A DNA stretch of 28,964 nt from an uncultured Myxococcales bacterium (lineage in GTDB: Bacteria > Myxococcota_A > Polyangia > Palsa-1104 > JAEUJZ01): positions 1-28,964 of the forward strand of contig CAYTGC010000035.1 of the NCBI GenBank assembly GCA_964437195.1, read 5' to 3'. The first letter of the stretch is position 1; each line of letters starts with the position of its first letter. The position numbers were made by a program, and so were the translations under genes. The notes under the pieces were generated by a model. The model did not search any database. It was not told where the DNA came from and worked only from the letters and a program-made list of their open reading frames with translations. Shown here piece after piece: positions 503-17,214 of this stretch.

Positions 503-1543
503 TTGGTGTCAAAGCGTCCGCCGCTCCTCGGCTATAACCACAATGTTCGTCACGCTGGACGGCTGTTTCACGTTCAGACGGAGGACTCAGGTCCGGCGCG
601 TCCGGTCCTGACCACTCACCTGTTCATTGAGGGTACGATTCTCTCCTCGCAGAGGACGCCGTACTCGCTGGATGAGCCGGAGACGGTGACCCAGAAGCGG
701 ATGCAAGAGCAGCACAAAGGAATGCTCAAGCGTCTGCGCGATGGACTGTTTGACAACCTGCCGGAAGTTCAGCGCTTCCCGGTCCAAAAGAGCGATGCGC
801 ATGGCAGCGCTCCGACGGCAAAAGCGGCAGCGGGGGACACCCAGAAGATCGGGGCCCCCAAGCCAACCGGCGACGCTGCGGCAGCCAAACCAGATGGCTC
901 GTCCCCGATCATTTCTCCGGTTCCGCCACCACCGACTGGGCCCGGGGTGAGCACGTCGACGCTGGCCGAGCGCCTGAAGAAGATCAATGCCGGATCGGGC
1001 ACGGTTCCGGCACCCAGCGAGAGCAAAGTCATTGTTTCGCCTGAAGCAGCGCCGGACGACGCAGTTGTCGAGATCGAAGCGGCTGCTGACGACGATGAGC
1101 CGGCCCTGTCGTTCGAGGCTGAAGCTGACGACGATATGCTGAGCGAGAACACGCCGCTGCCGAAAGCCCGGCCTCTGGCGTCTCTCGATCAGGAGGATCA
1201 GACGGCTCAGTTTGGGGCAAATCAGATTCCGGTGGTGCAGCCTCCTGCTGCGAAGGCGCCGGCGGTGCTTACCTCGATTCCGCCAGTCCAGCGGTCGATT
1301 CCGTCCTATACCATTCCGCCGGAGCTGTTCAAGCCGCGGCCAACCGCCGAGGGTGTCACGCTGCGTCGCTCGCCACCTGTGCCGATCACTCGCACGGTCG
1401 CCGATCCGATCCGTACCACCATCGTCAGGGGTCGTCCGACGCGCCCTGCGCCGCTTGCGCCCACGCTCAAGCCGGGCCAGTCCCTCGCGGATGGCCCACT
1501 TGATGTCGAGATTCTCAGCTACCTGTCACGAATCAGCCAATAG
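503..1543 (+). CDS. Hypothetical protein: ~75-aa N-terminal region (LLGYNHNVRHAGRLFHVQTEDSGPARPVLTTHLFIEGTILSS) followed by ~270 aa of Pro/Ala/Asp-rich, probably disordered, sequence
   Basis: Long ORF with GC-rich codon usage. The start must be non-ATG (TTG 503 or GTG 506), because an in-frame stop lies at 497..499 and the first in-frame ATG is around codon 66. It is divergent from the partial gene at 1..350. The low-complexity tail has acidic runs (EAAADDDEPALSFEAEADDD). Confidence 0.5.
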   Translation: MVSKRPPLLGYNHNVRHAGRLFHVQTEDSGPARPVLTTHLFIEGTILSSQRTPYSLDEPETVTQKRMQEQHKGMLKRLRDGLFDNLPEVQRFPVQKSDAHGSAPTAKAAAGDTQKIGAPKPTGDAAAAKPDGSSPIISPVPPPPTGPGVSTSTLAERLKKINAGSGTVPAPSESKVIVSPEAAPDDAVVEIEAAADDDEPALSFEAEADDDMLSENTPLPKARPLASLDQEDQTAQFGANQIPVVQPPAAKAPAVLTSIPPVQRSIPSYTIPPELFKPRPTAEGVTLRRSPPVPITRTVADPIRTTIVRGRPTRPAPLAPTLKPGQSLADGPLDVEILSYLSRISQ

Positions 1544-5848: not shown

Positions 5849-7335
5849 GGATCGGACATGACCTGCCGTGAAAGCCACAGGACACCGAAGAGGTTCTGTT
5901 CACTAAGCGGCTGCGCAGACAGTGTCACGAGTCGTACGGTCCGATCAGCGTAGACTTCGCCGCCTTCTGGATCGTGGGAACGCAAGGCGTGCTGCATCTG
6001 TGAAAGCGTAAACGGAAGGCTCTTCCCTGCATACAGGATCGCCAGTCCTGTCGAGTTTCCCTCAACCACCAGGAGGGAAGGGAAAGCCTGGGCTGCCGAG
6101 GCTGCAATCTGCTGACCCAGTGGATCGTGTAAGCTCGAACAGAGGCTCAGCGCTGCGACGCCACCCTCGCCAAGATGGCTTGCGATCTGCGCGTAGAAAC
6201 CCGGCGAATGCAGAAGCGCGAGCTGGGTCCGGTAGGGTGCCGGAACATCAAGCACGATCAGGTCATAGCGCTCGTGGCTCTGTGCGAGAGAGACGCGTGC
6301 ATCGGCAATCTCGACAGTGATGTCTTGCGCAGAGAGCTTGTGATGACTTGCGAACTGGCGAAACCCGATGTCGGCCACTGCGGCATCAAGCTCGATCACG
6401 CGGACGCGATAACCCAGCCGGTGAAGATGGGCAGCCGAGGAAAAACTGCCACTTCCGATCACCAGGGCAGACCCGTTGTGACGGGCAAGCAGCGCACCTG
6501 GGATCCGTGCCAGCAGCACATTGAAGGCATCCAAATCACCGGCCCGATAGAAGGGAACACCGTCGAGAAAAAGGATCTTCTCACCCTGCGAGGAGACAAC
6601 ATCCACGCGCTGATACGGTGAGTAGCGACTCTCTAGTAGCGTGGGTGTCGCGAGCTGATGAACGCGTTGATAGTACAGCTCGGATGCCTTGCGATCGAGT
6701 GTCTGTAGGTTCCCGGCCACAAGACACCCAGCCACTGCAAAGAGCAGTCCGTAGCGCACGCCGTACGACAACCCAAGGAGCAGTGCGGGCAGGAGCAAGT
6801 AGACTGTAAGGAGCGTCCTGTGCGACGGCACACTGGCGATGAGCAGGAGCATCAGGGCCGCACCGAGAAGCTCTCCAGCGTAGAGCCACGGAATCGAGCG
6901 AGGTGGTGATATATGAGGCAAAATAAATGAATAATATCCACAGAGCAGAGAGATTCCTGCAGTGATGACTGCGGCACTTGGTCCAAGCTGAGACGGGCCA
7001 AAAACAGAAACGATCGCGCGAATTCCGAACGGGAGCAGCCACTGGCAGAGGGCAGCCACACAAGACCAGGCAAACACGGTTCGGTCCGAGAGCCGAAAGC
7101 GCAGTGACAGAGCATATCCCAGGCTTGGTCCGAGCAGTGTGATCACGGTCGCGGCGATGAGAGACAGCTCGGTCACAAAAAACGTCGATCCAAGCTCACG
7201 CGAAGCGATGTACTGGCTGGCAAGCAGACTCGCCCCCGAAGCAGCCAACAGCAACAGGTGTCGAAGTGCTGGAACGGAAGGCGTCTCTGTCGGTCGATCG
7301 TCCTCTCGACTTTGTGCCACGCCAGAATCTACCAT
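5845..7335 (-). CDS. Membrane-anchored spermidine-synthase-like / class I SAM-dependent aminopropyl- or methyl-transferase-fold protein (N-terminal ~7 TM helices plus a C-terminal Rossmann-type domain)
   Basis: C-terminal half reads NGSALVIGSGSFSSAAHLHRLGYRVRVIELDAAV...YDLIVLDVP, typical of the SpeE/methyltransferase nucleotide-binding fold. The N-terminal half is hydrophobic. ATG at 7335, 9 nt after the stop of the cyclase gene. Confidence 0.5.
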   Translation of the reverse strand: MVDSGVAQSREDDRPTETPSVPALRHLLLLAASGASLLASQYIASRELGSTFFVTELSLIAATVITLLGPSLGYALSLRFRLSDRTVFAWSCVAALCQWLLPFGIRAIVSVFGPSQLGPSAAVITAGISLLCGYYSFILPHISPPRSIPWLYAGELLGAALMLLLIASVPSHRTLLTVYLLLPALLLGLSYGVRYGLLFAVAGCLVAGNLQTLDRKASELYYQRVHQLATPTLLESRYSPYQRVDVVSSQGEKILFLDGVPFYRAGDLDAFNVLLARIPGALLARHNGSALVIGSGSFSSAAHLHRLGYRVRVIELDAAVADIGFRQFASHHKLSAQDITVEIADARVSLAQSHERYDLIVLDVPAPYRTQLALLHSPGFYAQIASHLGEGGVAALSLCSSLHDPLGQQIAASAAQAFPSLLVVEGNSTGLAILYAGKSLPFTLSQMQHALRSHDPEGGEVYADRTVRLVTLSAQPLSEQNLFGVLWLSRQVMSDP

Positions 7336-7344
7336 GAAGGCATC

Positions 7345-8643
7345 CTACCCGAGCTTGTAAAGCTGAACGCTTTCTTCCCGGCCTTTGACCTGAACTGGGT
7401 CGAGCTTTTCGACATGGACGGATTCGCTCGGTAGTCGACTGACCACGGCCTCGGTCGCGAGAATCTGGGTGTTCAGGCCCTTGTTCAGACTTTCCACTCG
7501 GGCCGCTAGGTTGACGGCATCACCTATCACTGTGTATTCCCGCCGGAGCTGGGATCCGACGCTTCCTGTAACGACATCGCCGGCATGAAGTCCGATTCCG
7601 ATCCTCGTCTTGGGAATGAGCTGTGCGGCGCAAAGGGAATCAACTTTGGCGAGTAGTTCCAGCGCCGCGTGGACTGCGGACTGGCAGTGGTTTTCGTTTG
7701 CAATTGGTGCGCCAAAAATCGCGAGAAATCCGTCACCGAGGAACTTGTTGATGATGCCGCCGTGCTTGTCGATGATCTCAACCAGCGGACCGAACAGGGT
7801 GTTGAGGAAGCGGACGACTTCGCTCGGGGATTTCCCTTCCGAAAAGCGCGTAAAGTCACGGATGTCGAGAAACAGAATCGACACATTTCGTGTCTCTGTG
7901 ACCTGTCCCGCATGGGTTCCAAGGAGGCGTTCGGCAACCTGGGGTGAGACGTGTTGGCCGAACATTGCGACGGTGCGATCTCGTTCCAGCACGGCTTCAG
8001 CAGTCCGCATGAGCCGGGCGCGCAGATCGCGACTGACCAATGCGGCCCCCATTCCACAGACCACCAAAATGGAAGCGCGCAGGAACATCGGAACGGGTGA
8101 CGAAAAAATCGGATCGTGCTGTCTGGGCAGATGCGAAAAGGACCAAGAACCAAAGAGCAGATACTCCGCTGCACACAGGACTGCGACAAACAGCGAGTAG
8201 GGCATGCTCAGTCGCAAGATCGACAGCATGATAAGTCCCAGATAAATGAGAACAGGTGGGGCTGCGAGCGCAAACTCTGCCGAGGAAAAACGACCAATAA
8301 TCCACAGGAATCCGGTGATCCCTGTGACTTCAACAAAGGAGTTTGCGAGCAGGTAGACACTGGGAAGCGGCTTGTCGGCGTCAAGCTTGCGCTGGATTAC
8401 GAAGTACGAAAGCCAGCAGTACGCTGCGAAAATGCCAATGCCGATCCGAAGACGTGGGCCGACGAGGGAAAGCGGAGAGCTTGGGCTGCCGGTGATGCCA
8501 GGGTCGAGGAGGTTGAAGACCAACATCGCCAGAATGAATCCGAGCGTGAACACCACGGCCACGATGCGGGCGCGGGCTCGCTCGGTGGCCATGATCTCGC
8601 GGGCAAGCTGCTGGGCGAGCGCCCGCTCGTGACTCGGGTCCAT
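7345..8643 (-). CDS. Class III adenylate/guanylate cyclase with an N-terminal 6-TM membrane domain
   Basis: The C-terminal cyclase-homology domain is unmistakable: VSILFLDIRDFTRFSE...FLGDGFLAIFGAP...GIGLHAGDVVTGSVGS...YTVIGDAVNLAARVES. ATG at 8643. Confidence 0.85.
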   Translation of the reverse strand: MDPSHERALAQQLAREIMATERARARIVAVVFTLGFILAMLVFNLLDPGITGSPSSPLSLVGPRLRIGIGIFAAYCWLSYFVIQRKLDADKPLPSVYLLANSFVEVTGITGFLWIIGRFSSAEFALAAPPVLIYLGLIMLSILRLSMPYSLFVAVLCAAEYLLFGSWSFSHLPRQHDPIFSSPVPMFLRASILVVCGMGAALVSRDLRARLMRTAEAVLERDRTVAMFGQHVSPQVAERLLGTHAGQVTETRNVSILFLDIRDFTRFSEGKSPSEVVRFLNTLFGPLVEIIDKHGGIINKFLGDGFLAIFGAPIANENHCQSAVHAALELLAKVDSLCAAQLIPKTRIGIGLHAGDVVTGSVGSQLRREYTVIGDAVNLAARVESLNKGLNTQILATEAVVSRLPSESVHVEKLDPVQVKGREESVQLYKLG

Positions 8644-8694
8644 GGCTCATCATATCGCGGAGACGGGCACCACGGCGGCGAGTCTGCGTTGCGG

Positions 8695-8952
8695 CTAGGC
8701 GGTAGGAGATTTTCCGTCGGAAGGTGGTGGTTCAGACTTGCCGTGTGCAGCCGGGGTTTCCGGGTGCGCGCTTCCCCCACCCAAAAGTGAGTAGAGGAAG
8801 ATGATCGCACCGAGTCCCCACAGCAGAAGACCAAGACCCGCGTAGACAAAGAAAGCGGTCGGGTGAGACCAGCGAAGTGTGAGTGCCTCTACGACCAGGC
8901 CGAGTAGAACGAGGCAGGCAGCAATCCGCGTGCGCAGATGTTCCTTGCTCAT
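8695..8952 (-). CDS. Small (85 aa) two-TM membrane protein, last gene of the cytochrome operon
   Basis: The ATG at 8952 overlaps the TGA stop of the NapC-like gene (ATGA at 8949..8952). Sequence MSKEHLRTRIAACLVLLGLVVEALTL...FFVYAGLGLLLWGLGAIIFLYSLLG has two hydrophobic helices. The track ORF extends to 8973. Confidence 0.5.
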   Translation of the reverse strand: MSKEHLRTRIAACLVLLGLVVEALTLRWSHPTAFFVYAGLGLLLWGLGAIIFLYSLLGGGSAHPETPAAHGKSEPPPSDGKSPTA

Positions 8953-9554
8953 TTGACGGCCTCCGGTTTCCACAGAGGAAGGCTATCGACTTCGCTGGTG
9001 ACGTGAACCGTGTCGTGACAGTCCTTGCTGATGCACGACAGCTCGTTGCGTCGCATTTTTTCCATGCGGCCCGGCTCGGCGCTGTGGGTCTCCCCTTTTA
9101 GATAGCGCCGGGCACCTTCGTGACAGTGCAGACACTCACGATTGTTGTAAGGCTCATACAGCGCAAGCTTGTCCGGGATCTTGCCAAAGTAGTTCACCAG
9201 TACGTGCTTTACGCCGCGCAGCTTCGCCTGAAAATCACCGTACATGGTGTACGTGGTGTGACAGCTAAAGCAAGCGCGCTCACGAGGAATCCTGCCGCCT
9301 TGAAAGTGGGAAGCTGCCAGGATCGTGGTGTCATCGACGAGCAGACTCCGTCCGTGTTTTCCCATCACATGGCACGACGTACAGAAGGTGGTCTGCTTCG
9401 AGTTCTCGACATGCCGATCTACACCCATCACACTGACGGTCACTGGCAAGACAAACAGACCAGTAAACGCCAGCGTTTTGCTCGTATGGGCTGGCCGAAA
9501 CAGGATCACCGCGGCCAGCAAGATGGCGATCCCAAACAGTGCCGCTAACATCAT
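8949..9554 (-). CDS. NapC/NirT/NrfH/CymA-family membrane-anchored tetraheme cytochrome c (quinol dehydrogenase)
   Basis: N-terminal TM anchor (MMLAALFGIAILLAAVILF), then CTSCH, CFSCH and CLHCH plus a fourth CISKDCH (CX4CH) motif. Size (~200 aa) and layout are typical of the family. GAGGGAAGG RBS upstream of the ATG at 9554. Confidence 0.8.
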   Translation of the reverse strand: MMLAALFGIAILLAAVILFRPAHTSKTLAFTGLFVLPVTVSVMGVDRHVENSKQTTFCTSCHVMGKHGRSLLVDDTTILAASHFQGGRIPRERACFSCHTTYTMYGDFQAKLRGVKHVLVNYFGKIPDKLALYEPYNNRECLHCHEGARRYLKGETHSAEPGRMEKMRRNELSCISKDCHDTVHVTSEVDSLPLWKPEAVK

Positions 9555-9587
9555 CCTTCCCTCACCCCGCCAGCGTTTAGGAATCGC

Positions 9588-9941
9588 CTACTTCTTGGCC
9601 AGCTTGCGGACGAACAACACCAGACCTTCGAGCTGATCGCCACTGATCTCGGGAGTGGCTGGCATCTTCACTTCCTTGCCATCCTTCGTTTCGGTCTTGC
9701 CCTTGTTGATCATTTCCTTCAGCTCGGCGTCCTTGAATCGTTCCTGAACTTTGGGATCGGTGAGATCACGCAGCGGACCACCAAACTTCTTTTTCGCCTG
9801 CTCGGTGTCTCCCTTGCCGTCTTCACCGTGGCACGAAGCGCACTTGGCCTTCCACGCCCGCTTCACGCGTGGATCATTTTCATCGGCTGAGGCCGACAAG
9901 GCAAATGACAGAAGGGATGCGATGATGAGCAGCTTGCGCAT
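9588..9941 (-). CDS. Class I monoheme cytochrome c, periplasmic (signal peptide MRKLLIIASLLSFALSASA)
   Basis: Single CASCH near the N-terminus and a downstream KMPA Met-ligand-type motif. ATG at 9941 is preceded by AAGGAGAG. The track ORF starts at an upstream GTG (9965). Confidence 0.75.
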   Translation of the reverse strand: MRKLLIIASLLSFALSASADENDPRVKRAWKAKCASCHGEDGKGDTEQAKKKFGGPLRDLTDPKVQERFKDAELKEMINKGKTETKDGKEVKMPATPEISGDQLEGLVLFVRKLAKK

Positions 9942-9990
9942 GAGAGACTCTCCTTGGGACCGCACTTGACGTTGGTCTGTGTAGTTTTGT

Positions 9991-11052
9991 CTAGAGCGTG
10001 TGGCAGTAGCGGCACATGCCGTTGCGTACGATCTCTTGACGGTCGTGCCGCTCCGTCCATTCAGGTGGATGCGGATTTCCGCCGAGCCCGCCGACTTTGT
10101 GGCAGTTCACACAGTTCGAGCGCGGTCCTTGATCGTGGCAGCTTGCACAGCTTGTGATGTTACGACGTGCCGCAAGTCCATGGAACTGCGGAGTGCTAGG
10201 CGTGTTAAACCCAGGCGGATGTGGGTTTCTCGGATTGTCACTCCTACCGCTGACTCCCTGCTGGTTGTGGCAGTTTTCACAGAAGCTCTGACCATGGCAG
10301 CGCAGACATGAAGTCGGATCGGCACGAGATTCCATGCTGTGCCTGCCGACGAAGTCACCGCGATGAATCAGATCGCTGTCTGCTCGCTCTGGGAACTTGA
10401 GCTCAATTGGCGCAAAGACCGTCTTGGCATGACAGTCCGCGCAGAACGTCTGCTCGTGACAGGTTGCACAGCTATCCGGCGTCGAGCGGGCAGGGCGCGC
10501 GTGACCCAGCACGAAGTTCCCTTGATGCGAGAACTGGGTGATCGGCTTCTGCGGATACCGCTTCAGATCTTTGTGACAGCTTCCGCAACTTCCCTGCTCA
10601 TATTCCTGCTTGTGGGTATGGCAGCCGAAACACGACTCCATCGTTGGTGCGACGGCAGGCTGTCCTTTTTCCGACAGCGTCTTGTGGCAGCGCGTGCAGT
10701 CTTCCTTGGTCTGCTCGATGTGCTTGGCGTGCGACAGCTTGAGGGTCGATGGCTGGCGGCGATAGGAAGTCGGACGCACTGGATCAGTGTGACAATATCC
10801 GCAGTTTCCGTTCTTCTTGTTGTCCTCGTGACACTCAAGGCACTTGGACTCTTTGGGGAAGAAGTCCCCTTTCATGTCCTGCGCGTCATAGATGGTTTCA
10901 TGACAGACGAGGCAGTCCACTTTGGCTTTGGTGTGAACGCTGTGCGGAACCTTGATCGCGTCGCCCCCACCGATCTTGGCCCAGAAAGTCGCGCAGGCGA
11001 CGGTAAATAAAACGCTGGCGAGAAGGAGCCAGCGGAGGCCACGGGCGCTCAT
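9991..11052 (-). CDS. Periplasmic multiheme cytochrome c with 13 CXXCH motifs in 353 aa
   Basis: CLVCH, CLECH, CGYCH, CTRCH, CFGCH, CGSCH, CATCH, CADCH, CLRCH, CENCH, CASCH, CVNCH and CRYCH with abundant extra His. N-terminal signal/anchor MSARGLRWLLLASVLFTVACA. Its ATG overlaps the stop of the porin gene (ATGA at 11049..11052). Confidence 0.85.
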   Translation of the reverse strand: MSARGLRWLLLASVLFTVACATFWAKIGGGDAIKVPHSVHTKAKVDCLVCHETIYDAQDMKGDFFPKESKCLECHEDNKKNGNCGYCHTDPVRPTSYRRQPSTLKLSHAKHIEQTKEDCTRCHKTLSEKGQPAVAPTMESCFGCHTHKQEYEQGSCGSCHKDLKRYPQKPITQFSHQGNFVLGHARPARSTPDSCATCHEQTFCADCHAKTVFAPIELKFPERADSDLIHRGDFVGRHSMESRADPTSCLRCHGQSFCENCHNQQGVSGRSDNPRNPHPPGFNTPSTPQFHGLAARRNITSCASCHDQGPRSNCVNCHKVGGLGGNPHPPEWTERHDRQEIVRNGMCRYCHTL

Positions 11053-12311
11053 TCATGCACCTCACGGAAGACTTGCGTTGCGTTATACGCGAGCTTCACA
11101 ACAAACTCCACTCGGCGTTCCACAAACGGAGTCACGTCAGCAAATCCGGTGGCGACGAGCTTGAAACCACGGCCAAGATCTCCGGCCACGGTTCCGGTTC
11201 CAGTGAAAGAGTAACTCTGTCCGTTTATCGCCTGATCAAGGAAGTAACTGTTGGCACCTAGCGTGACGAACCACGAGGGGGAGAGCTTGTGGGTGCTGTA
11301 AAGACGCGCCTGCACATAGCCGTTGTTTGGTAGCTTGAGGAGTCGCAGCTCGCCGTTGATTGTGGTGTGATCGCGCTGCCCAAGTGCGACGGTGGCCTTG
11401 ATTCCGCCGCGTGCGCCTGCGCCCTCCATGTTCACCACGGCACGAAGGTCGCCGTAGAAGCGCAGCCTGCGAATCGGCTTAAAGAAGACGTTTCCGCCCA
11501 CTTCATCACGCGTCTCTTGTGAGAAGACAGAGAACACAGAGTTTAGCGGCAGAAAGAGATCCGGCGCGGTTCGGCGATAGTCCGCACCGATCTGGAACAT
11601 CAGGTTGGGAATCCAGGTTGCAGCGACGTCGGCTTCGGCAACGCGCGCTTCAGGAATCGAATACAGGGTGTAGCCGGTGAGCGCGACTTGCTCATGTGGA
11701 ACGTAGCGAGCGTCGACGGCAAGATCCTGCCGGGCTGCGCGTCCTTCGCCCATCACTTGATTGAAGGACACGCCGACTTCGGTATCGACAGAGTGTCGAT
11801 AGAACATCCGACCACCAAAGACCACGTCACCGCGGCTGACCGAGAAACGCGGTGTGACTGGCACTCCACCATACCCAGATATTCCAAGTCCCTTGTAGAT
11901 CTGGATCGTGGCAGAACCGCCATCAAGCTGGGTGCTGCGGGCGGCTCCACCGAACACAAACTGGCGCCCGAGTCGAAGCTGGACGCGCCGTTTCCAGAAG
12001 CTACCGTCGAGATAGCCGAGATCGATGTCTCCCGACCAGTACTGATCGCGACCAATGTCGAGCTGCACCGAACCCCAGCCCGACATCACGATGTTGATGC
12101 TGTCAAAGTACGGTCGCTTGATCTGCGCCGTGACCCCTAACGACTGATAGACCGGAACAACGGTGTGGATCTGTCCATCCCGCGGATCTGCGCGTCCTGC
12201 CAACAGCGTCGATACGTTGAATTCAACGGAGTCTGCATGTGCAGATCCACTGGCAAACAGAAGGCCACACAGGATGGTCCGGCAGAGTCTTGGATGGCGT
12301 CTAATTTCCAT
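11049..12311 (-). CDS. Outer-membrane beta-barrel (porin-like) protein; candidate porin of a porin-cytochrome complex
   Basis: Signal peptide MEIRRHPRLCRTILCGLLFASGSAHA. The 420-aa body is Gly/Tyr/Ser/Thr-rich with alternating hydrophobic beta-strand-like patterns and aromatic residues near the C-terminus (KLAYNATQVF). It sits between the periplasmic and lipoprotein cytochromes. Its start overlaps the stop of the upstream cytochrome gene by 11 nt. Confidence 0.55.
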   Translation of the reverse strand: MEIRRHPRLCRTILCGLLFASGSAHADSVEFNVSTLLAGRADPRDGQIHTVVPVYQSLGVTAQIKRPYFDSINIVMSGWGSVQLDIGRDQYWSGDIDLGYLDGSFWKRRVQLRLGRQFVFGGAARSTQLDGGSATIQIYKGLGISGYGGVPVTPRFSVSRGDVVFGGRMFYRHSVDTEVGVSFNQVMGEGRAARQDLAVDARYVPHEQVALTGYTLYSIPEARVAEADVAATWIPNLMFQIGADYRRTAPDLFLPLNSVFSVFSQETRDEVGGNVFFKPIRRLRFYGDLRAVVNMEGAGARGGIKATVALGQRDHTTINGELRLLKLPNNGYVQARLYSTHKLSPSWFVTLGANSYFLDQAINGQSYSFTGTGTVAGDLGRGFKLVATGFADVTPFVERRVEFVVKLAYNATQVFREVHE

Positions 12312-13932
12312 CAGAGACTCCGTTAAGATGCGTCGTGGTCATCGCGCCCGCAGAGCCAGTAAATACAATCGTCCCGTTTGCATCCATGGTCTTTGCGTGA
12401 CACTTCACGCAGTCGACGAGACGCATGGTTGCAACGTGATTGACATCTTTGGGGGGAATGCCGTGGCACGACCCGCACGAGCCCTGATTGGGGGCGGTCC
12501 AGATCGGCGTGCGGTTGACCGTCGGATTGGTATCGCCAAGGAGCTTGCTTCCGCCACCGTGGCAGTACGTGTTTGTACACTTCGCGGTTCCGCTGTTCCA
12601 GGTTGGTGTCGCGCCTTCCAGCGTACTCAGCTTGGCGCCAAGTGAGGCCGGGAAGATGGCGACTCCTTGTCCGCCGACTTTGTGGAGGTTGGTTCCTGAT
12701 ACGAGTAGCTCGACGCCACGGTGGCACTCCGTGCAAGCGATCGGAGCGCTCATCTTGTGTGTGGCGCTGACGTGAGCCGTGTGCGCCCCCACAGACAAAA
12801 TCGTTGAGTCCGTCTGTCGGATTAGGTTCTGAAACGCTGTGCTTCCGGTGAAGCCGTGACAAGAGGAGCACTGTCCTTTTCCATCACCGGCGTCGCTCTT
12901 TCCATCGACGTGTAGTGTTCCCGGGATGAACTCTTTGGCTTCATTTACGGTTCCGTTGTGGCAGATCACGCATCGCGTGGATGTCGCAGCGTGGCTGGCT
13001 GGAGGGGCACCGTGACAGGTTCCGCACTTGATCTCGCTGGACGTGCCGGTCCACTTCGGTGTGGTGTTCATGGCATTCAGATCACCGAGCACCGCACCGT
13101 GACAGTAAACGTTCGAGCACTGCTTGGTGCTTGCATCGAGCAGTGGCGGACTCAGACGATACATCGCATAGGGAGTCGCACTGGCCAGACTGCCAAACGA
13201 GATGATCGGCGGTGTGGTTCGCAGCGTCTCATCGGCATTGAAGACATGCCCCGGATCAAGCCATGACACCCGCTTGGGGTGACACTCTGTGCAAGCCAGC
13301 GAGCGTCCCAGCGTCGCTCCTTTGATGTGCGCGCGGTGTGCATTGGGGAGCCGCGAGTGACAGGTGTCACAAGTGGTCACGCCTTGCGGGTGGCATGTTA
13401 GACAGGAAACCTCCGCTGCTCCGCCGCTGAGATCCTTGCCATGGCAGTCCGAACATGCACTGAGCTTGTAGTTGGCCTGCCGCAGCAGCGCCCCGTGAAA
13501 CTGTCCGTTCGGATCCTCGGGATTCAAGATGCCTGCCTGATGGTAGACCGTCCGGGCGTAGGACATGTTGCAGTCCACCACCCAGCTTCGCAGGCTTTCG
13601 CGAACAGAGTCCGTGATGTTTTTGTGTGCTGCCGAGGTCGTGTCACTCGCGATGATTTGGAGGAGCTGGGAGTTGCTGTCACCAGCGACGGCACGGACTG
13701 GTACTTCGCCGCCCCCTAAGACCGACAGATAGTTCGCGGTATCTAGACTTGCGGCAGGACTTGCCCCACTGTGACAGCTTCCACAGTTGTCTTTGAGAAG
13801 AGGCGCGATTTCGTCTTTCCAACTGATGCACTGCGTGCGGGTTCCTTGCGGGGTCCGCGCGCTGCCGCAGCCAGTACCAACGAGCAATGCCACTGCGAAA
13901 AGCAGCGACGGATGTCTCAGCATCCGACCCAT
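12301..13932 (-). CDS. Multiheme c-type cytochrome lipoprotein (11 CXXCH plus 2 CX4CH motifs), probable outer-membrane/extracellular
   Basis: ATG at 13932 is preceded by AAGGAG. Lipoprotein signal MGRMLRHPSLLFAVALLVGTGC. Motifs CGSCH, CSDCH, CLTCH, CDTCH, CTECH, CSNVYCH, CGTCH, CVICH, CSSCH, CTECH, CTNTYCH, CGSCH and CVKCH. The track ORF extends to an upstream start at 14043. Only 4 nt separate it from the stop of the upstream decaheme gene. Confidence 0.8.
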   Translation of the reverse strand: MGRMLRHPSLLFAVALLVGTGCGSARTPQGTRTQCISWKDEIAPLLKDNCGSCHSGASPAASLDTANYLSVLGGGEVPVRAVAGDSNSQLLQIIASDTTSAAHKNITDSVRESLRSWVVDCNMSYARTVYHQAGILNPEDPNGQFHGALLRQANYKLSACSDCHGKDLSGGAAEVSCLTCHPQGVTTCDTCHSRLPNAHRAHIKGATLGRSLACTECHPKRVSWLDPGHVFNADETLRTTPPIISFGSLASATPYAMYRLSPPLLDASTKQCSNVYCHGAVLGDLNAMNTTPKWTGTSSEIKCGTCHGAPPASHAATSTRCVICHNGTVNEAKEFIPGTLHVDGKSDAGDGKGQCSSCHGFTGSTAFQNLIRQTDSTILSVGAHTAHVSATHKMSAPIACTECHRGVELLVSGTNLHKVGGQGVAIFPASLGAKLSTLEGATPTWNSGTAKCTNTYCHGGGSKLLGDTNPTVNRTPIWTAPNQGSCGSCHGIPPKDVNHVATMRLVDCVKCHAKTMDANGTIVFTGSAGAMTTTHLNGVSDGN

Positions 13933-13936
13933 CGCC

Positions 13937-16393
13937 TTACTCCTTTTCGCGTGAGTAGGGGGGCTTGTACGGGCTGCTGATGTTGTGGGCTTTGCTGACA
14001 GCGAACTCGGCACCTTCTCCATGGCAAACCATGCAGGTTTCAACCGGCTTGCCCATCGGATCTGTCCAGGTGTTTAGCGCCGCGTGTCCTGCAGCAGCAG
14101 AGGTATCGTGGCAGCCCAGGCACGCCATGGTATTGGCCTGCAGATACGCATTGTTTTTGCACTTGCCGGACACGCAGGCTTGGCCAACTCCGCACGGCGC
14201 GGTCGCCGAGCAGGTTGCATTCGAGTCACCGTGGCACTTGGTGCAGTTGCGCACATCCTGTGGGAACAGAAACTCCGAAAAATCGTTCGTGCTGTTCGAG
14301 TTTCCGATGTAGACCAACGCGCCCGGGTTAATGAGTCCGCCTCGCTCTGCGTATCCGCCCAGGTGTCGCGCAAAGTGAGTCGAGTGAATCATCGACGCAA
14401 ACTGAATGGTCTGTCCGGGCGTCGGGTCCACCGCGACAACGCAGGTGTCGAGCTTTCCATCGACGGGATTTACGTCTTGGCAGGTCTCCCAGCCTGCGGC
14501 GTTTCCTCGACACTGCGTGCTTACCGTGCAGGCCAGACCACGGGCTCCCACCGTGCGATCCACGGCGCCAGTGGTGTGACAGATCGAGCAGCCTTCGGCA
14601 TCACGACGGCTGCCTCCGTGCGCTTGGGCAGTGACGTGACAGGCATTGCAGGACTCTCGCTTGATGACATGGCGGGGCTGAATCGGCTGTGAACCACCGA
14701 CGCGGAAGTCCACCAGTGCAGTGCCTACATCGCGAACGTTCGTTCCTTTGTAGCTTGTCGTCTCAACGACATAAAGCCAAGCAGAGTACGTTCCTGCCGG
14801 ATTCGGTCGTGGCGTAAGACCCGTTGTGTTCAGCGGCGGCAGTGCACTCGCTGGCCACGTCGTCGCTGGGTTAAACGTATAGAGGTTGGTCCCAGAATCA
14901 AACGTCAGCGTACCGGTGGTCTTCACGTTGGTCGACGGATAAATCATCTGTCGATCGTTTGTCGGGCCACCGATAAGGAGCGTTCCAGAGAGCGCGGTAT
15001 TGGTCTTCAAATCGACGATCGGATTCCCTGTCCCATCAAGAAGCTTGAAGGTCAGCTTGGGTAAGTCGCCGACCATCATGGCTCCCATCGGACCCGATCC
15101 ACCTGCCATCACAACCTCAGACAGAGAGATCTTGCGGACACGCGTACGCGTCAGGATCTCGTGTTTGTCTGGTATGGGCGAAATTCCAGATGAGTCCGCG
15201 CTGTGGCAGGTTGCGCACTGCGAGTCGTCCGTCTGCTTCGGATGCGTGGCGGTCTCGCACAGCAGCGTCACGGTATTGCACTTGGCCAGGCTGCTCCTCG
15301 CGGCGCAGTCGGTATCGGTGGCACATGCACCTGTATAGGTGCGGACCGGATTGAGCGTTCCGGTATCAAAGAACAGCGAGTCATGACAAGCACCACAGGC
15401 CTGGCGTGACGGCTTCTTCAGATTTCGATCATCTTTGTGACACTTGGCGCAGTCTTTTTCTGCGTCAGGCATCGATGGGAAACCGACGTTCTTATACAGA
15501 GCCAAGGATGCGTCGGCAGGGACTCCGTACTCTGGATGGGCAACGCCTGCACTTGCTTGGTGCTCGCCTCGGTGTGCCGCGTGAACCTTGCGCACCGTCG
15601 TGTTTACACTGTATCCGTCCTGGTTGTGACAGACCTTGCAGGTCGCGATGGGGAATTGATCGAGCGCCCAGTTGCCGAGCGGTGAGAATCCCGGCTCGAT
15701 GTGATGCATGTAGAGCTTGCCACTCGCTGCTCCCTTGTGACAGTCGCCGCAGCTGGATGACTGAGGATCACCGGATGCGTACGTCTCGACGGTGGCGGTT
15801 CCAATCTGGAAGTCTAGGAGTGGGAAGATTTGCTGCTGCTCGTCTGGGGTCTTGGCCCACAGTGCCACCGTGTAGGTTCCCGCGGCTTCGCTGCTGATCG
15901 CAGCCAGCTGATAGACCAGAGTCCCGTCCTTTTCGGTGCTAAGTCCCGCTGCGTTGGGATTTGCGTACGAAGGACTCTTCAGGTTGATGTAGTGGTGCTG
16001 GCGATCCTTGGCCGCTCGGTCGGTGACGGCATTGAGCAGCCGATTGGCACTCCTCGTGGTGAGTGCTCCACGCGGACCGACGAGATAGAGATTCGCCGTG
16101 CCCAATTCCGAAGGCAGGAGCAGTCTGCTGCAGGTAGACCCCAGCTTGATGGTGAGCTTCGGAGCTTCACCCGGCAGGTAGTACGAACCCTGAGCGGGCG
16201 GGCTGAGCGCAAGCTCTGCCTTGAATCCTGGGGCATTTGGATCACATGACACCGCGGTCATGTTCTCGTCAGGAATCAAGGAGCCGGAGGGACCACTTGG
16301 GCCGACTGGGCCTTCGCAAGTGGCGACGAGCAAGGCACACAGGGAGAGAAGCCTACTGATTGGCCGCATGGATATTAGTCTCTTAAGGATCAT
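13937..16393 (-). CDS. Decaheme c-type cytochrome lipoprotein (~818 aa) with an MtrC/OmcA-like beta-domain / pentaheme / beta-domain / pentaheme layout
   Basis: GGGAGA RBS 6 nt upstream of the ATG at 16393. Signal and lipobox MILKRLISMRPISRLLSLCALLVATC. Ten CXXCH motifs fall in two clusters of five (CGDCH, CKVCH, CAKCH, CGACH, CATCH / CNACH, CSICH, CTKCH, CLGCH, CMVCH), separated by heme-free regions of ~280 and ~160 aa. The track ORF extends upstream to 16633 without an RBS. Confidence 0.8.
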   Translation of the reverse strand: MILKRLISMRPISRLLSLCALLVATCEGPVGPSGPSGSLIPDENMTAVSCDPNAPGFKAELALSPPAQGSYYLPGEAPKLTIKLGSTCSRLLLPSELGTANLYLVGPRGALTTRSANRLLNAVTDRAAKDRQHHYINLKSPSYANPNAAGLSTEKDGTLVYQLAAISSEAAGTYTVALWAKTPDEQQQIFPLLDFQIGTATVETYASGDPQSSSCGDCHKGAASGKLYMHHIEPGFSPLGNWALDQFPIATCKVCHNQDGYSVNTTVRKVHAAHRGEHQASAGVAHPEYGVPADASLALYKNVGFPSMPDAEKDCAKCHKDDRNLKKPSRQACGACHDSLFFDTGTLNPVRTYTGACATDTDCAARSSLAKCNTVTLLCETATHPKQTDDSQCATCHSADSSGISPIPDKHEILTRTRVRKISLSEVVMAGGSGPMGAMMVGDLPKLTFKLLDGTGNPIVDLKTNTALSGTLLIGGPTNDRQMIYPSTNVKTTGTLTFDSGTNLYTFNPATTWPASALPPLNTTGLTPRPNPAGTYSAWLYVVETTSYKGTNVRDVGTALVDFRVGGSQPIQPRHVIKRESCNACHVTAQAHGGSRRDAEGCSICHTTGAVDRTVGARGLACTVSTQCRGNAAGWETCQDVNPVDGKLDTCVVAVDPTPGQTIQFASMIHSTHFARHLGGYAERGGLINPGALVYIGNSNSTNDFSEFLFPQDVRNCTKCHGDSNATCSATAPCGVGQACVSGKCKNNAYLQANTMACLGCHDTSAAAGHAALNTWTDPMGKPVETCMVCHGEGAEFAVSKAHNISSPYKPPYSREKE

Positions 16394-16475
16394 AATAATT
16401 CTCCCTGCCTCGAAATGGGAAGCGGATAGTCGATCTTCGGCCTTGAAAGTTGTACGCGGATTCAGCAGATGGCTG

Positions 16476-16518
16476 CTCGATCGAGTCTGCAAATCTGCCG
16501 TAAGGATCGACTCGATCC
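16476..16518. promoter_or_regulatory. Pair of operator-like palindromes in the divergent promoter region between the cytochrome operon and the EF-hand gene: CTCGATCGAG (16476..16485) and GGATCGAcTCGATCC (16504..16518)
   Basis: Both are perfect palindromes sharing a TCGATCGA/TCGA-N-TCGA core. GATCGAGTC (16479..16487) and GACTCGATC (16509..16517) also form a 9-bp inverted repeat. They lie ~70-120 bp upstream of the ATG at 16393. Confidence 0.3.
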
Positions 16519-16650
16519 ATCTACTCCCTCCTGGCCGTCGTGGGCTCCGTGAACATCGTGGCCGGGACGACATGTGCGAGAACGTCGTCGAGAAACAGCG
16601 TGATATGGACAGCTCCCGAACTTGAGCCGACAATGCTGTCGGGGGTGTTT

Positions 16651-17214
16651 ATGTCCAGCATTCTGTCACCGCTTCAGGTTCGGAAGTTCACCACGCTGTT
16701 TTCCCACTACGATGTGAACGGAGATGGCGTTCTGTCAGAGGCAGACTTTCGCGAGCAAGCGCGACGGATTCTCGACAGCTTCGGCTGGACCAACGATGAG
16801 AATCGTTCCCGCCACGTCTATGACAGTCGGGCCGAGCTGTTTTTGCGCTTGGCCTCTGGCGCAGACAAAGATCGCAACGGGTCGGTCTCGCTCGAAGAAT
16901 TTCTGCGCTACTTTGAACGGCAGATCTTGGCTCATCGGGCCGCAGGGGTTGCTTCTCCATGGCTTGTCCAGGCCTGTCGCGATGTGATCGAAATCATCGA
17001 TCACGATGGCTCTGGCTGCATCACGGAACTGGAGTACGCACGGCTCCTCAAGTCGATGGGATCAGACGCCGATCCGCATGAGACGTTTCTGAAGATTGAT
17101 CGTGACAGCGACGGAAAGTTGTCACTAAAGGAGCTGATCGCACTCTCGCTGGAGTTTATGATCAGCGAAGACCCGGAAGCTCCCGGGAACTTCTTTTTCT
17201 GCGGTAAGGTGTAA
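16651..17214 (+). CDS. EF-hand calcium-binding protein with four canonical 12-residue loops
   Basis: The four loops are DVNGDGVLSEAD, DKDRNGSVSLEE, DHDGSGCITELE and DRDSDGKLSLKE. ATG at 16651 follows a G-rich stretch. An alternative ATG lies at 16633, and the track start at 16540 is unlikely. The gene is divergent from the cytochrome operon. Confidence 0.8.
   Translation: MSSILSPLQVRKFTTLFSHYDVNGDGVLSEADFREQARRILDSFGWTNDENRSRHVYDSRAELFLRLASGADKDRNGSVSLEEFLRYFERQILAHRAAGVASPWLVQACRDVIEIIDHDGSGCITELEYARLLKSMGSDADPHETFLKIDRDSDGKLSLKELIALSLEFMISEDPEAPGNFFFCGKV

Follow-up and report, generated by a model that had tools for sequence, protein, structure and literature searches.

An MtrC-type decaheme cytochrome heads a six-gene operon predicted to encode an extracellular electron-transfer conduit in an uncultured Myxococcota bacterium

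MtrC-type cytochromes are the best-understood protein interface between a microbe and a mineral or electrode, are used in bioelectronic engineering, and are usually discussed within the MtrCAB complex. Members of the OmcA/MtrC family have a four-domain order of beta-barrel, pentaheme, beta-barrel and pentaheme (PMC7096707). True MtrCAB systems are also found in Desulfuromonadia, where mtrC is sometimes located apart from mtrAB (2025 study, PMC12133095), and divergent porin-cytochrome clusters with "MtrC-like" cytochromes have been described in Acidobacteriota and Verrucomicrobiota (2026 preprint, bioRxiv 10.64898/2026.05.27.727921). The MtrCAB survey of Baker et al. 2022 does not mention Myxococcota (PMC8805035). 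MtrC matches in Myxococcota metagenome-assembled genomes (MAGs) are mentioned in passing in the literature, and a search for an explicit account of MtrC-type genes joined to non-Mtr porin clusters in this phylum returned only such passing mentions. Here we analyse a 28,964-nt stretch of DNA from an uncultured Myxococcales bacterium (contig CAYTGC010000035.1, assembly GCA_964437195.1; hereafter the window), and in particular a minus-strand gene at positions 13937–16393 that encodes a decaheme lipoprotein cytochrome. We conclude that this gene is the first of a six-gene operon and that the operon most likely forms a conduit for extracellular electron transfer in this soil member of the Myxococcota.

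The decaheme gene starts with an ATG at 16393 that is preceded by GGGAG and opens the signal peptide MILKRLISMRPISRLLSLCALLVATC, and it ends, stop codon included, at 13937, giving a product of 818 amino acids (aa). An 898-aa open reading frame (ORF) starting from a TTG at 16633 was discarded, because the homologs begin at an MILKRL-type signal peptide and GGGAG precedes the ATG at 16393. The homolog in a syntenic Myxococcales MAG (JAEUKA010000028, locus L003) is 817 aa long. The features of the gene, all on the minus strand, are as follows.

13937–16393, minus strand: decaheme lipoprotein c-type cytochrome of the MtrC/OmcA/UndA/MtrF fold family, 818 aa (CXXCH motifs, PF22113, TIGR03507, PDB fold matches)
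16316–16393, minus strand: signal peptide and lipobox, residues 1–26, ending LLVATC, with Cys26 the predicted lipidated residue (sequence)
16280–16315, minus strand: collagen-like G-X-Y tether EGPVGPSGPSGS, directly after the lipid anchor (repeat, homolog alignment)
15803–16225, minus strand: domain I, heme-free beta domain, residues 57–197, 7 strands, with the conserved Cys50/Cys88 pair (DSSP on the model, pLDDT ~90)
15143–15751, minus strand: domain II, first pentaheme domain, residues 215–417, CXXCH at 215/252/315/333/393, with a four-Cys beta-hairpin insert (C357, C363, C372, C379)
14699–15127, minus strand: domain III, second heme-free beta domain, residues 423–565, 8 strands, no Cys (model, pLDDT ~95)
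13988–14659, minus strand: domain IV, second pentaheme domain, residues 579–802, CXXCH at 582/602/717/758/787, with four-Cys inserts C622/628/638/651 and C728/734/740/745

The decaheme product contains exactly ten CXXCH motifs and no CX3CH or CX4CH motif. The first five are at residues 215, 252, 315, 333 and 393, and the second five, at residues 582, 602, 717, 758 and 787, fall in the C-terminal 237 aa; a heme-free stretch precedes each group, at residues 27–214 (~188 aa) and 398–581 (~184 aa), respectively. Shuffling the same residues 20,000 times yields a mean of 0.05 CXXCH motifs and a maximum of 2, and these counts, taken with the motif positions, indicate that the 5 + 5 grouping is real. 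Furthermore, exactly ten CXXCH motifs are kept in all 48 aligned homologs, and the same alignment shows 11 invariant histidines outside the motifs, sufficient for bis-His ligation of ten hemes.

The profile searches place the decaheme in the OmcA/MtrC family. The Pfam model Mtrc-MtrF_II-IV_dom (PF22113) matches in three stretches with 105.2 bits against a cut-off of 30, and the NCBIfam OmcA/MtrC family model TIGR03507 matches with an E-value of 1.9e-56. When the single sequence is searched against all PDB sequences, MtrF is the sole match. The profile built from the 48 homologs matches MtrF (1e-26), OmcA (5e-16), UndA (2e-8) and MtrC (~1e-4), with alignments that are colinear through domains II, III and IV; its only other match in the PDB is NrfB, which is marginal (E 0.0098). 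Specifically, the HMMER alignment of domain II is colinear with MtrF residues 242–306, and domain IV opens with CNACHvtaqaHGGsRrdaegCsiCH, the signature that opens a pentaheme domain of MtrF, OmcA and UndA.

The AlphaFold2 model, built on the 48-sequence alignment (mean predicted local-distance difference test score, pLDDT, 84; predicted template-modelling score, pTM, 0.77), consists of four domains, a beta domain at residues 57–197, a helical heme domain at 215–417, a beta domain at 423–565 and a helical heme domain at 579–802. The model superposes on the solved structures of MtrC, OmcA, UndA and MtrF. In a Foldseek search against the PDB, the first 14 matches consist entirely of MtrC, OmcA and UndA structures (E 1e-18 to 1e-13), followed by immunoglobulin-like domains at 4e-5. 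In addition, beta domain I and the heme motif after it are homologous to domain III and the motif after it (hhalign, 98.5% probability, E 2e-15). A pseudo-twofold duplication of domains I + II against III + IV, which is known for the MtrC fold, is thus supported by sequence comparison at the level of the beta domains and of the first heme motif after each. These matches support the assignment of the protein as a ten-heme cytochrome of the Shewanella MtrC/OmcA type, predicted to be lipid-anchored at the cell surface.

A preliminary description of the locus had called a decaheme lipoprotein at 13937–16393 with an MtrC/OmcA-like layout of beta, five hemes, beta and five hemes. The coordinates are correct, the two clusters of five motifs, each after a heme-free beta-rich region, are confirmed, and the proposed relationship to MtrC/OmcA is borne out by both the profile matches and the predicted four-domain structure. 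The residue ranges that it gave have to be revised: the first cluster was placed at ~380–560 and lies at 215–397, a discrepancy that the +80 numbering of the 898-aa ORF does not remove; the second was placed in the C-terminal ~200 aa and spans the last 237 aa; and the heme-free lengths of ~280 and ~160 aa are in fact ~188 and ~184 aa.

The N terminus is of the lipoprotein type. The signal peptide ends in LLVATC, and Cys26 is conserved across the homologs and aligns with the lipobox Cys of MtrF in the comparison of the family profile with PDB sequences, so that the earlier lipoprotein call is reasonable even with an atypical Thr at position −1. The G-X-Y tether that follows comprises ~4 units in this protein and from 3 to >20 units in its homologs, many of which have a match to Pfam Collagen (PF01391); in the profile alignments, Shewanella MtrF, OmcA and UndA have a short GxxGxxG at this place. 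The tether can be read in two ways, as a triple helix that trimerises the cytochrome or as a plain spacer.

The decaheme is followed by five further genes on the same strand. The six genes are separated by junctions of +4, −11, −4, +49 and +33 nt, after which there is a gap of 305 nt. A scan of positions 8500–16800 for promoters and terminators gave counts at chance level. The five partner genes are listed in the order of transcription.

12301–13932, minus strand: second predicted lipoprotein cytochrome, 543 aa, 13 hemes (11 CXXCH + 2 CX4CH; motif count, lipobox LLVGTGC)
11049–12311, minus strand: porin-like outer-membrane beta-barrel, 420 aa, 22 predicted strands (AlphaFold2 model, pLDDT 85.6)
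9991–11052, minus strand: 13-heme cytochrome, 353 aa, 13 CXXCH, with an N-terminal c7-type triheme module and a lipobox-like LFTVAC (motif count, PpcA match)
9588–9941, minus strand: soluble class I cytochrome c with a single heme and a Sec signal, ~117 aa when counted from Met9 of the ORF (Pfam Cytochrom_C and Cytochrome_CBB3; one CXXCH)
8949–9554, minus strand: NapC/NirT/NrfH-type membrane-anchored tetraheme quinol dehydrogenase, 201 aa (3 CXXCH + 1 CX4CH; motifs, N-terminal hydrophobic helix)

The gene for the CX4CH lipoprotein begins 4 nt after the decaheme stop codon. Its product matches the NCBIfam CxxxxCH/CxxCH domain TIGR01904 with 75.7 bits against a cut-off of 27, and a search among PDB sequences found no relatives. 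The start of the barrel gene overlaps the upstream CX4CH gene by 11 nt. The barrel has no match in Pfam or NCBIfam even at E≤1, and its profile has none among PDB sequences at E≤1. In Foldseek, the barrel model most closely resembles usher pores and Occ/OprD porins, and its top 50 matches do not include MtrB.

The start of the 13-heme cytochrome gene overlaps the stop of the porin gene by 4 nt. Residues 29–89 of the product match Geobacter PpcA, a cytochrome c7, and the protein has no match to MtrA. Among the homologs in the matches listed, exactly 13 CXXCH motifs are present in 120 of 120 and a lipobox-like motif in 105 of 120. The prevalence of this signal suggests that the "periplasmic" 13-heme wire is probably a lipoprotein too, and the sequence motif implies that it may be lipid-anchored, unlike MtrA or OmaB. 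We predict that it acts as the trans-barrel wire. The last gene encodes a protein that matches Pfam Cytochrom_NNT (38.3 bits, cut-off 24.1) and the NrfH model TIGR03153 (E 3e-12), and it is the counterpart of Shewanella CymA.

Models of MtrA/DmsE and MtrB/PioB match none of the proteins encoded in the window. The modules among the operon partners that carry Geobacter-derived names are the c7/PpcA-like triheme unit and a GSu_C4xC__C2xCH domain. In addition, a porin-like gene adjoins a multiheme cytochrome gene and is accompanied by genes for outer-membrane lipoprotein cytochromes, which is the arrangement that defines Geobacter-type Pcc clusters (PMC4245776). The suggestion that an MtrC-type surface cytochrome sits in a Geobacter-style cluster as a mosaic conduit therefore stands, provided that "Geobacter-style" is taken to refer to domain types and cluster logic.

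The association of these genes recurs among relatives. The family is far from uncommon: the decaheme profile retrieves 2,488 clusters (50% identity) with E≤0.001, of which 466 reach E≤1e-30, relatives are encoded on more than 350 stretches of metagenomic DNA, and the homologs that carry names come from Myxococcales, Polyangia and Anaeromyxobacter (Myxococcota). We searched 79 metagenomic loci encoding decaheme relatives with the window proteins; 22 of them, on metagenomic contigs, are informative in that their decaheme homolog is at least 39% identical and is followed downstream by no less than 3.5 kb of sequence. Within these 22 loci the barrel is present in 18, the 13-heme cytochrome in 17 and the CX4CH cytochrome in 17. 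The conduit genes occur in at least three orders: decaheme, barrel, 13-heme and CX4CH is the commonest (11 of 22 loci), the CX4CH gene is second in a few loci including the window's lineage, and the barrel pair is inverted in one locus. Linkage that is kept despite a shuffled order argues for a functional unit. The MAG JAEUKA010000028 is syntenic with the window over the whole operon and its flanks.

More distant, shorter homologs of the decaheme (28–31% identity, ~650–800 aa) are found at 9617–12001 of locus L004, 9836–11956 of L072 and 9449–12007 of L086. No barrel gene lies near them, and MtrAB was not found beside them. Genes nearby encode, among others, a fusion of a PQQ dehydrogenase and a cytochrome c (1353 aa), a multi-cupredoxin protein, a GFO/IDH oxidoreductase together with a HEAT-repeat protein, and a two-component system; these contexts say nothing about the operon of the window.

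The decaheme shares several properties with MtrC, MtrF, OmcA and UndA of Shewanella (PDB 4LM8, 6QYC, 3PMQ, 4LMH, 3UCP). All are lipoproteins with a Gly-rich tether after the lipid Cys, all have ten CXXCH motifs (eleven in UndA) grouped as 5 + 5 in an internally duplicated beta/pentaheme/beta/pentaheme arrangement, and all contain the CxxCH-x5-HGG-x-R-x5-CxxCH opening of a pentaheme domain. However, identity in the structural alignments is just 12–20%, and the decaheme, at 818 aa, is longer than MtrC (PDB chains of ~670–700 aa). It also differs in having 12 extra conserved Cys in three hairpin inserts of the heme domains, together with Cys50/Cys88. These invariant non-heme Cys are C50/C88 in domain I, C357/363/372/379 in domain II, and C622/628/638/651 and C728/734/740/745 in domain IV, and the AlphaFold2 model places those of the heme domains in beta-hairpin inserts.

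The membrane-crossing partners differ from those of both the Shewanella and the Geobacter conduits. MtrCAB and MtrFDE use the decaheme MtrA and the 26-strand MtrB, whereas the operon described here has a 13-heme cytochrome and a 22-strand barrel instead. The OmbB-OmaB-OmcB and ExtABCD systems of Geobacter follow the same cluster logic, with a barrel gene, a periplasmic multiheme gene and genes for outer-membrane lipoprotein cytochromes (PMC4245776, PMC5585712), and the c7-type triheme modules and the GSu_C4xC__C2xCH domain of the operon are Geobacter-like. Unlike those conduits, the surface cytochrome of the window has the MtrC fold, and its periplasmic partner differs from the 8-heme OmaB in carrying 13 hemes together with a lipobox-like signal.

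Within the same phylum, the pcc clusters of Anaeromyxobacter (Group IV, Shi et al. 2014) consist of two genes, for a porin and a 338–344-aa periplasmic cytochrome with 12–14 hemes, without an outer-membrane cytochrome gene (PMC4245776). The barrel and the 353-aa 13-heme cytochrome fit this pair by size and heme count only, and the window cluster has two outer-membrane cytochrome genes where the Anaeromyxobacter clusters have none. A link through named homologs was sought and not obtained: the best 120 matches each of the barrel and of the 13-heme cytochrome are unnamed or are proteins of Polyangia/Myxococcales MAGs. The systems of Acidobacteriota, Verrucomicrobiota and Desulfuromonadia belong to other phyla and, as likened here by their descriptions, resemble the window in having MtrC-fold surface cytochromes outside Gammaproteobacteria that are syntenic with porins and periplasmic cytochromes. 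The Desulfuromonadia systems retain true MtrA and MtrB, in contrast to the operon of the window.

By comparison with these systems, the operon would work as an outward conduit. Menaquinol would be oxidised at the inner membrane by the CymA-like NapC/NirT-type tetraheme protein, and electrons would cross the periplasm, possibly via the mono-heme cytochrome c, and enter the 13-heme cytochrome threaded through the 22-strand barrel, which would carry them across the outer membrane. At the surface two lipid-anchored cytochromes, namely the decaheme of MtrC type and the CX4CH protein with its 13 hemes, would take them up and may in turn reduce acceptors that are insoluble or macromolecular, for example Fe(III)/Mn(IV) oxides or humic matter. 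The decaheme would take the role of Shewanella MtrC/OmcA, with its two pentaheme domains forming a branched heme wire, a geometry predicted from the fold, flanked by the two beta domains, while the collagen-like tether would keep it off the membrane.

Several observations weigh against this reading. First, the TIGR03507 match scores 191.9 bits and narrowly misses the curated cut-off of 209.3; by this measure the decaheme is a divergent relative of the curated subfamily. Second, Edwards et al. report that every clade of outer-membrane cytochromes in Shewanella conserves a CX8–15C disulfide in domain III, which governs the binding of flavin (PMC4486940), but residues 398–581 of the decaheme contain no Cys and hence no such disulfide, and domain III likewise lacks Cys in 44 of the 48 homologs. 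Flavin-assisted reduction may therefore not apply here; the family has cystine-rich inserts and a collagen-like tether in place of the disulfide. Third, the decaheme occurs without an adjacent barrel in 4 of the 22 loci, including the complete genome of Anaeromyxobacter oryzae, so it can occur without an adjacent conduit. Fourth, a class I mono-heme cytochrome c and a NapC/NirT-type tetraheme protein are encoded beside the porin-cytochrome pair, and in the Fe(II) oxidiser Sideroxydans the mtoA-mtoB-mtoD-cymA cluster has the same gene set of porin, multiheme cytochrome, mono-heme cytochrome c and NapC/NirT protein. Fifth, genes for Rieske and cytochrome b proteins of a bc-type complex are located within a few kb of the conduit cluster on three large contigs of relatives (L009, 2962–4823; L010, 18056–18496; L002, 18379–18885), and they may be relevant to which way electrons flow.

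The fourth and fifth observations make inward flow the main rival. Electrons taken from Fe(II), from minerals or humics in reduced form, or from a partner cell would then reach a high-potential chain (bc1 and oxidase) by way of the mono-heme cytochrome c, or enter the quinone pool through the NapC/NirT protein, and the mostly aerobic habit of Myxococcota would suit such a route. We nevertheless consider inward flow unlikely, since conduits of Fe(II) oxidisers reportedly have no surface MtrC homolog (PMC7096707; bioRxiv 10.1101/2022.03.26.485925), whereas two large surface lipoprotein cytochromes are encoded here, and the MtrC-family proteins that have been tested experimentally are all reductases.

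A second alternative concerns which surface cytochrome docks on the barrel. The CX4CH lipoprotein could be barrel-bound, like Geobacter OmcB, and feed the decaheme, which would then be a peripheral, OmcA-like accessory reductase. In the window it is indeed the CX4CH gene, and not the decaheme gene, that adjoins and overlaps the barrel gene, and the occurrence of the decaheme alone, as in A. oryzae, recalls that of omcA in Shewanella (PMC7096707). Yet the commonest order among relatives puts the decaheme directly before the barrel and the CX4CH gene last. Moreover, where the barrel is present both surface cytochromes are almost always present too, so the docked partner cannot be read from gene order. 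We regard a purely peripheral decaheme as improbable. Finally, it is hardly credible that the cluster is no mineral or electrode conduit and instead reduces a soluble substrate outside the cell or in the periplasm, for instance in a detoxifying or a nitrogen- or sulfur-oxide respiratory route: NapC/NirT/NrfH-type quinol dehydrogenases, to which the weak NrfH and NapC matches point, usually serve such reductases, and MtrCAB itself is reported to reduce soluble species such as H2O2 during iodate reduction (PMC9732548), but Pfam and NCBIfam searches find no catalytic subunit (molybdopterin, NrfA-type, copper or Fe-S) encoded in the operon, whose parts are pure heme wires and a barrel.

The genes that flank the operon in the window include the following.

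503–1543, plus strand: RomY N-terminal domain protein (93 bits, cut-off 50)
7345–8643, minus strand: adenylate/guanylate cyclase domain protein (Pfam, 112.8 bits), 305 nt downstream of the operon
16540–17214, plus strand: 224-aa protein with several EF-hand calcium-binding motifs, divergent from the decaheme gene
17240–20176, minus strand: 978-aa major-vault-protein-like protein (Pfam MVP_shoulder, 68 bits; weaker Vault_3/Vault_4 repeats)
20361–22091 and 22283–24097, minus strand: two large Cys-rich predicted lipoproteins, with a short match to the MIDAS motif region of the Bdellovibrio-type MIDAS adhesin model (E ~1e-10, far below the cut-off)

RomY is a regulator of motility polarity in Myxococcus, and the presence of a gene with its domain supports the Myxococcota origin of the contig. 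The cyclase gene is kept at the same position in L003 (55% identity) and could have a regulatory link to the operon. The vault-like gene lies near the cytochrome operon, with the EF-hand gene in between. In L003, a 1004-aa ORF at 6101–9115, upstream of the decaheme, and a 198-aa ORF at 9194–9790 correspond to the vault-like gene and, in position and orientation, to the EF-hand gene, respectively, each matched by position alone.

The decaheme is a divergent member of a known fold family; it is less expected that its pairing with a barrel and a wire of non-Mtr type is conserved and that the disulfide has been lost. We propose tentatively, as a generalisation that is slightly less likely than not, that soil Myxococcota, among which Polyangia are most often named, carry a conserved four-part outer-membrane conduit, in which an MtrC-fold surface cytochrome is joined to an MtrAB-unrelated module of a 22-strand barrel and a lipid-anchored 13-heme wire, together with a second 13-heme surface cytochrome. 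Such an arrangement suggests that different systems can exchange parts of the "electrical wiring" that links bacteria to outside minerals. If this is true, the surface terminal-reductase module and the membrane-crossing module would be separable and interchangeable, which would be useful for the design of hybrid conduits, and the MtrC fold would work without a flavin-gating disulfide, with cystine-stapled inserts and a collagen-like stalk of variable length. As a natural MtrC variant without the redox-active disulfide, the decaheme could serve to test the flavocytochrome model. For the organisms themselves, it would extend likely extracellular respiration to Myxococcota beyond Anaeromyxobacter.

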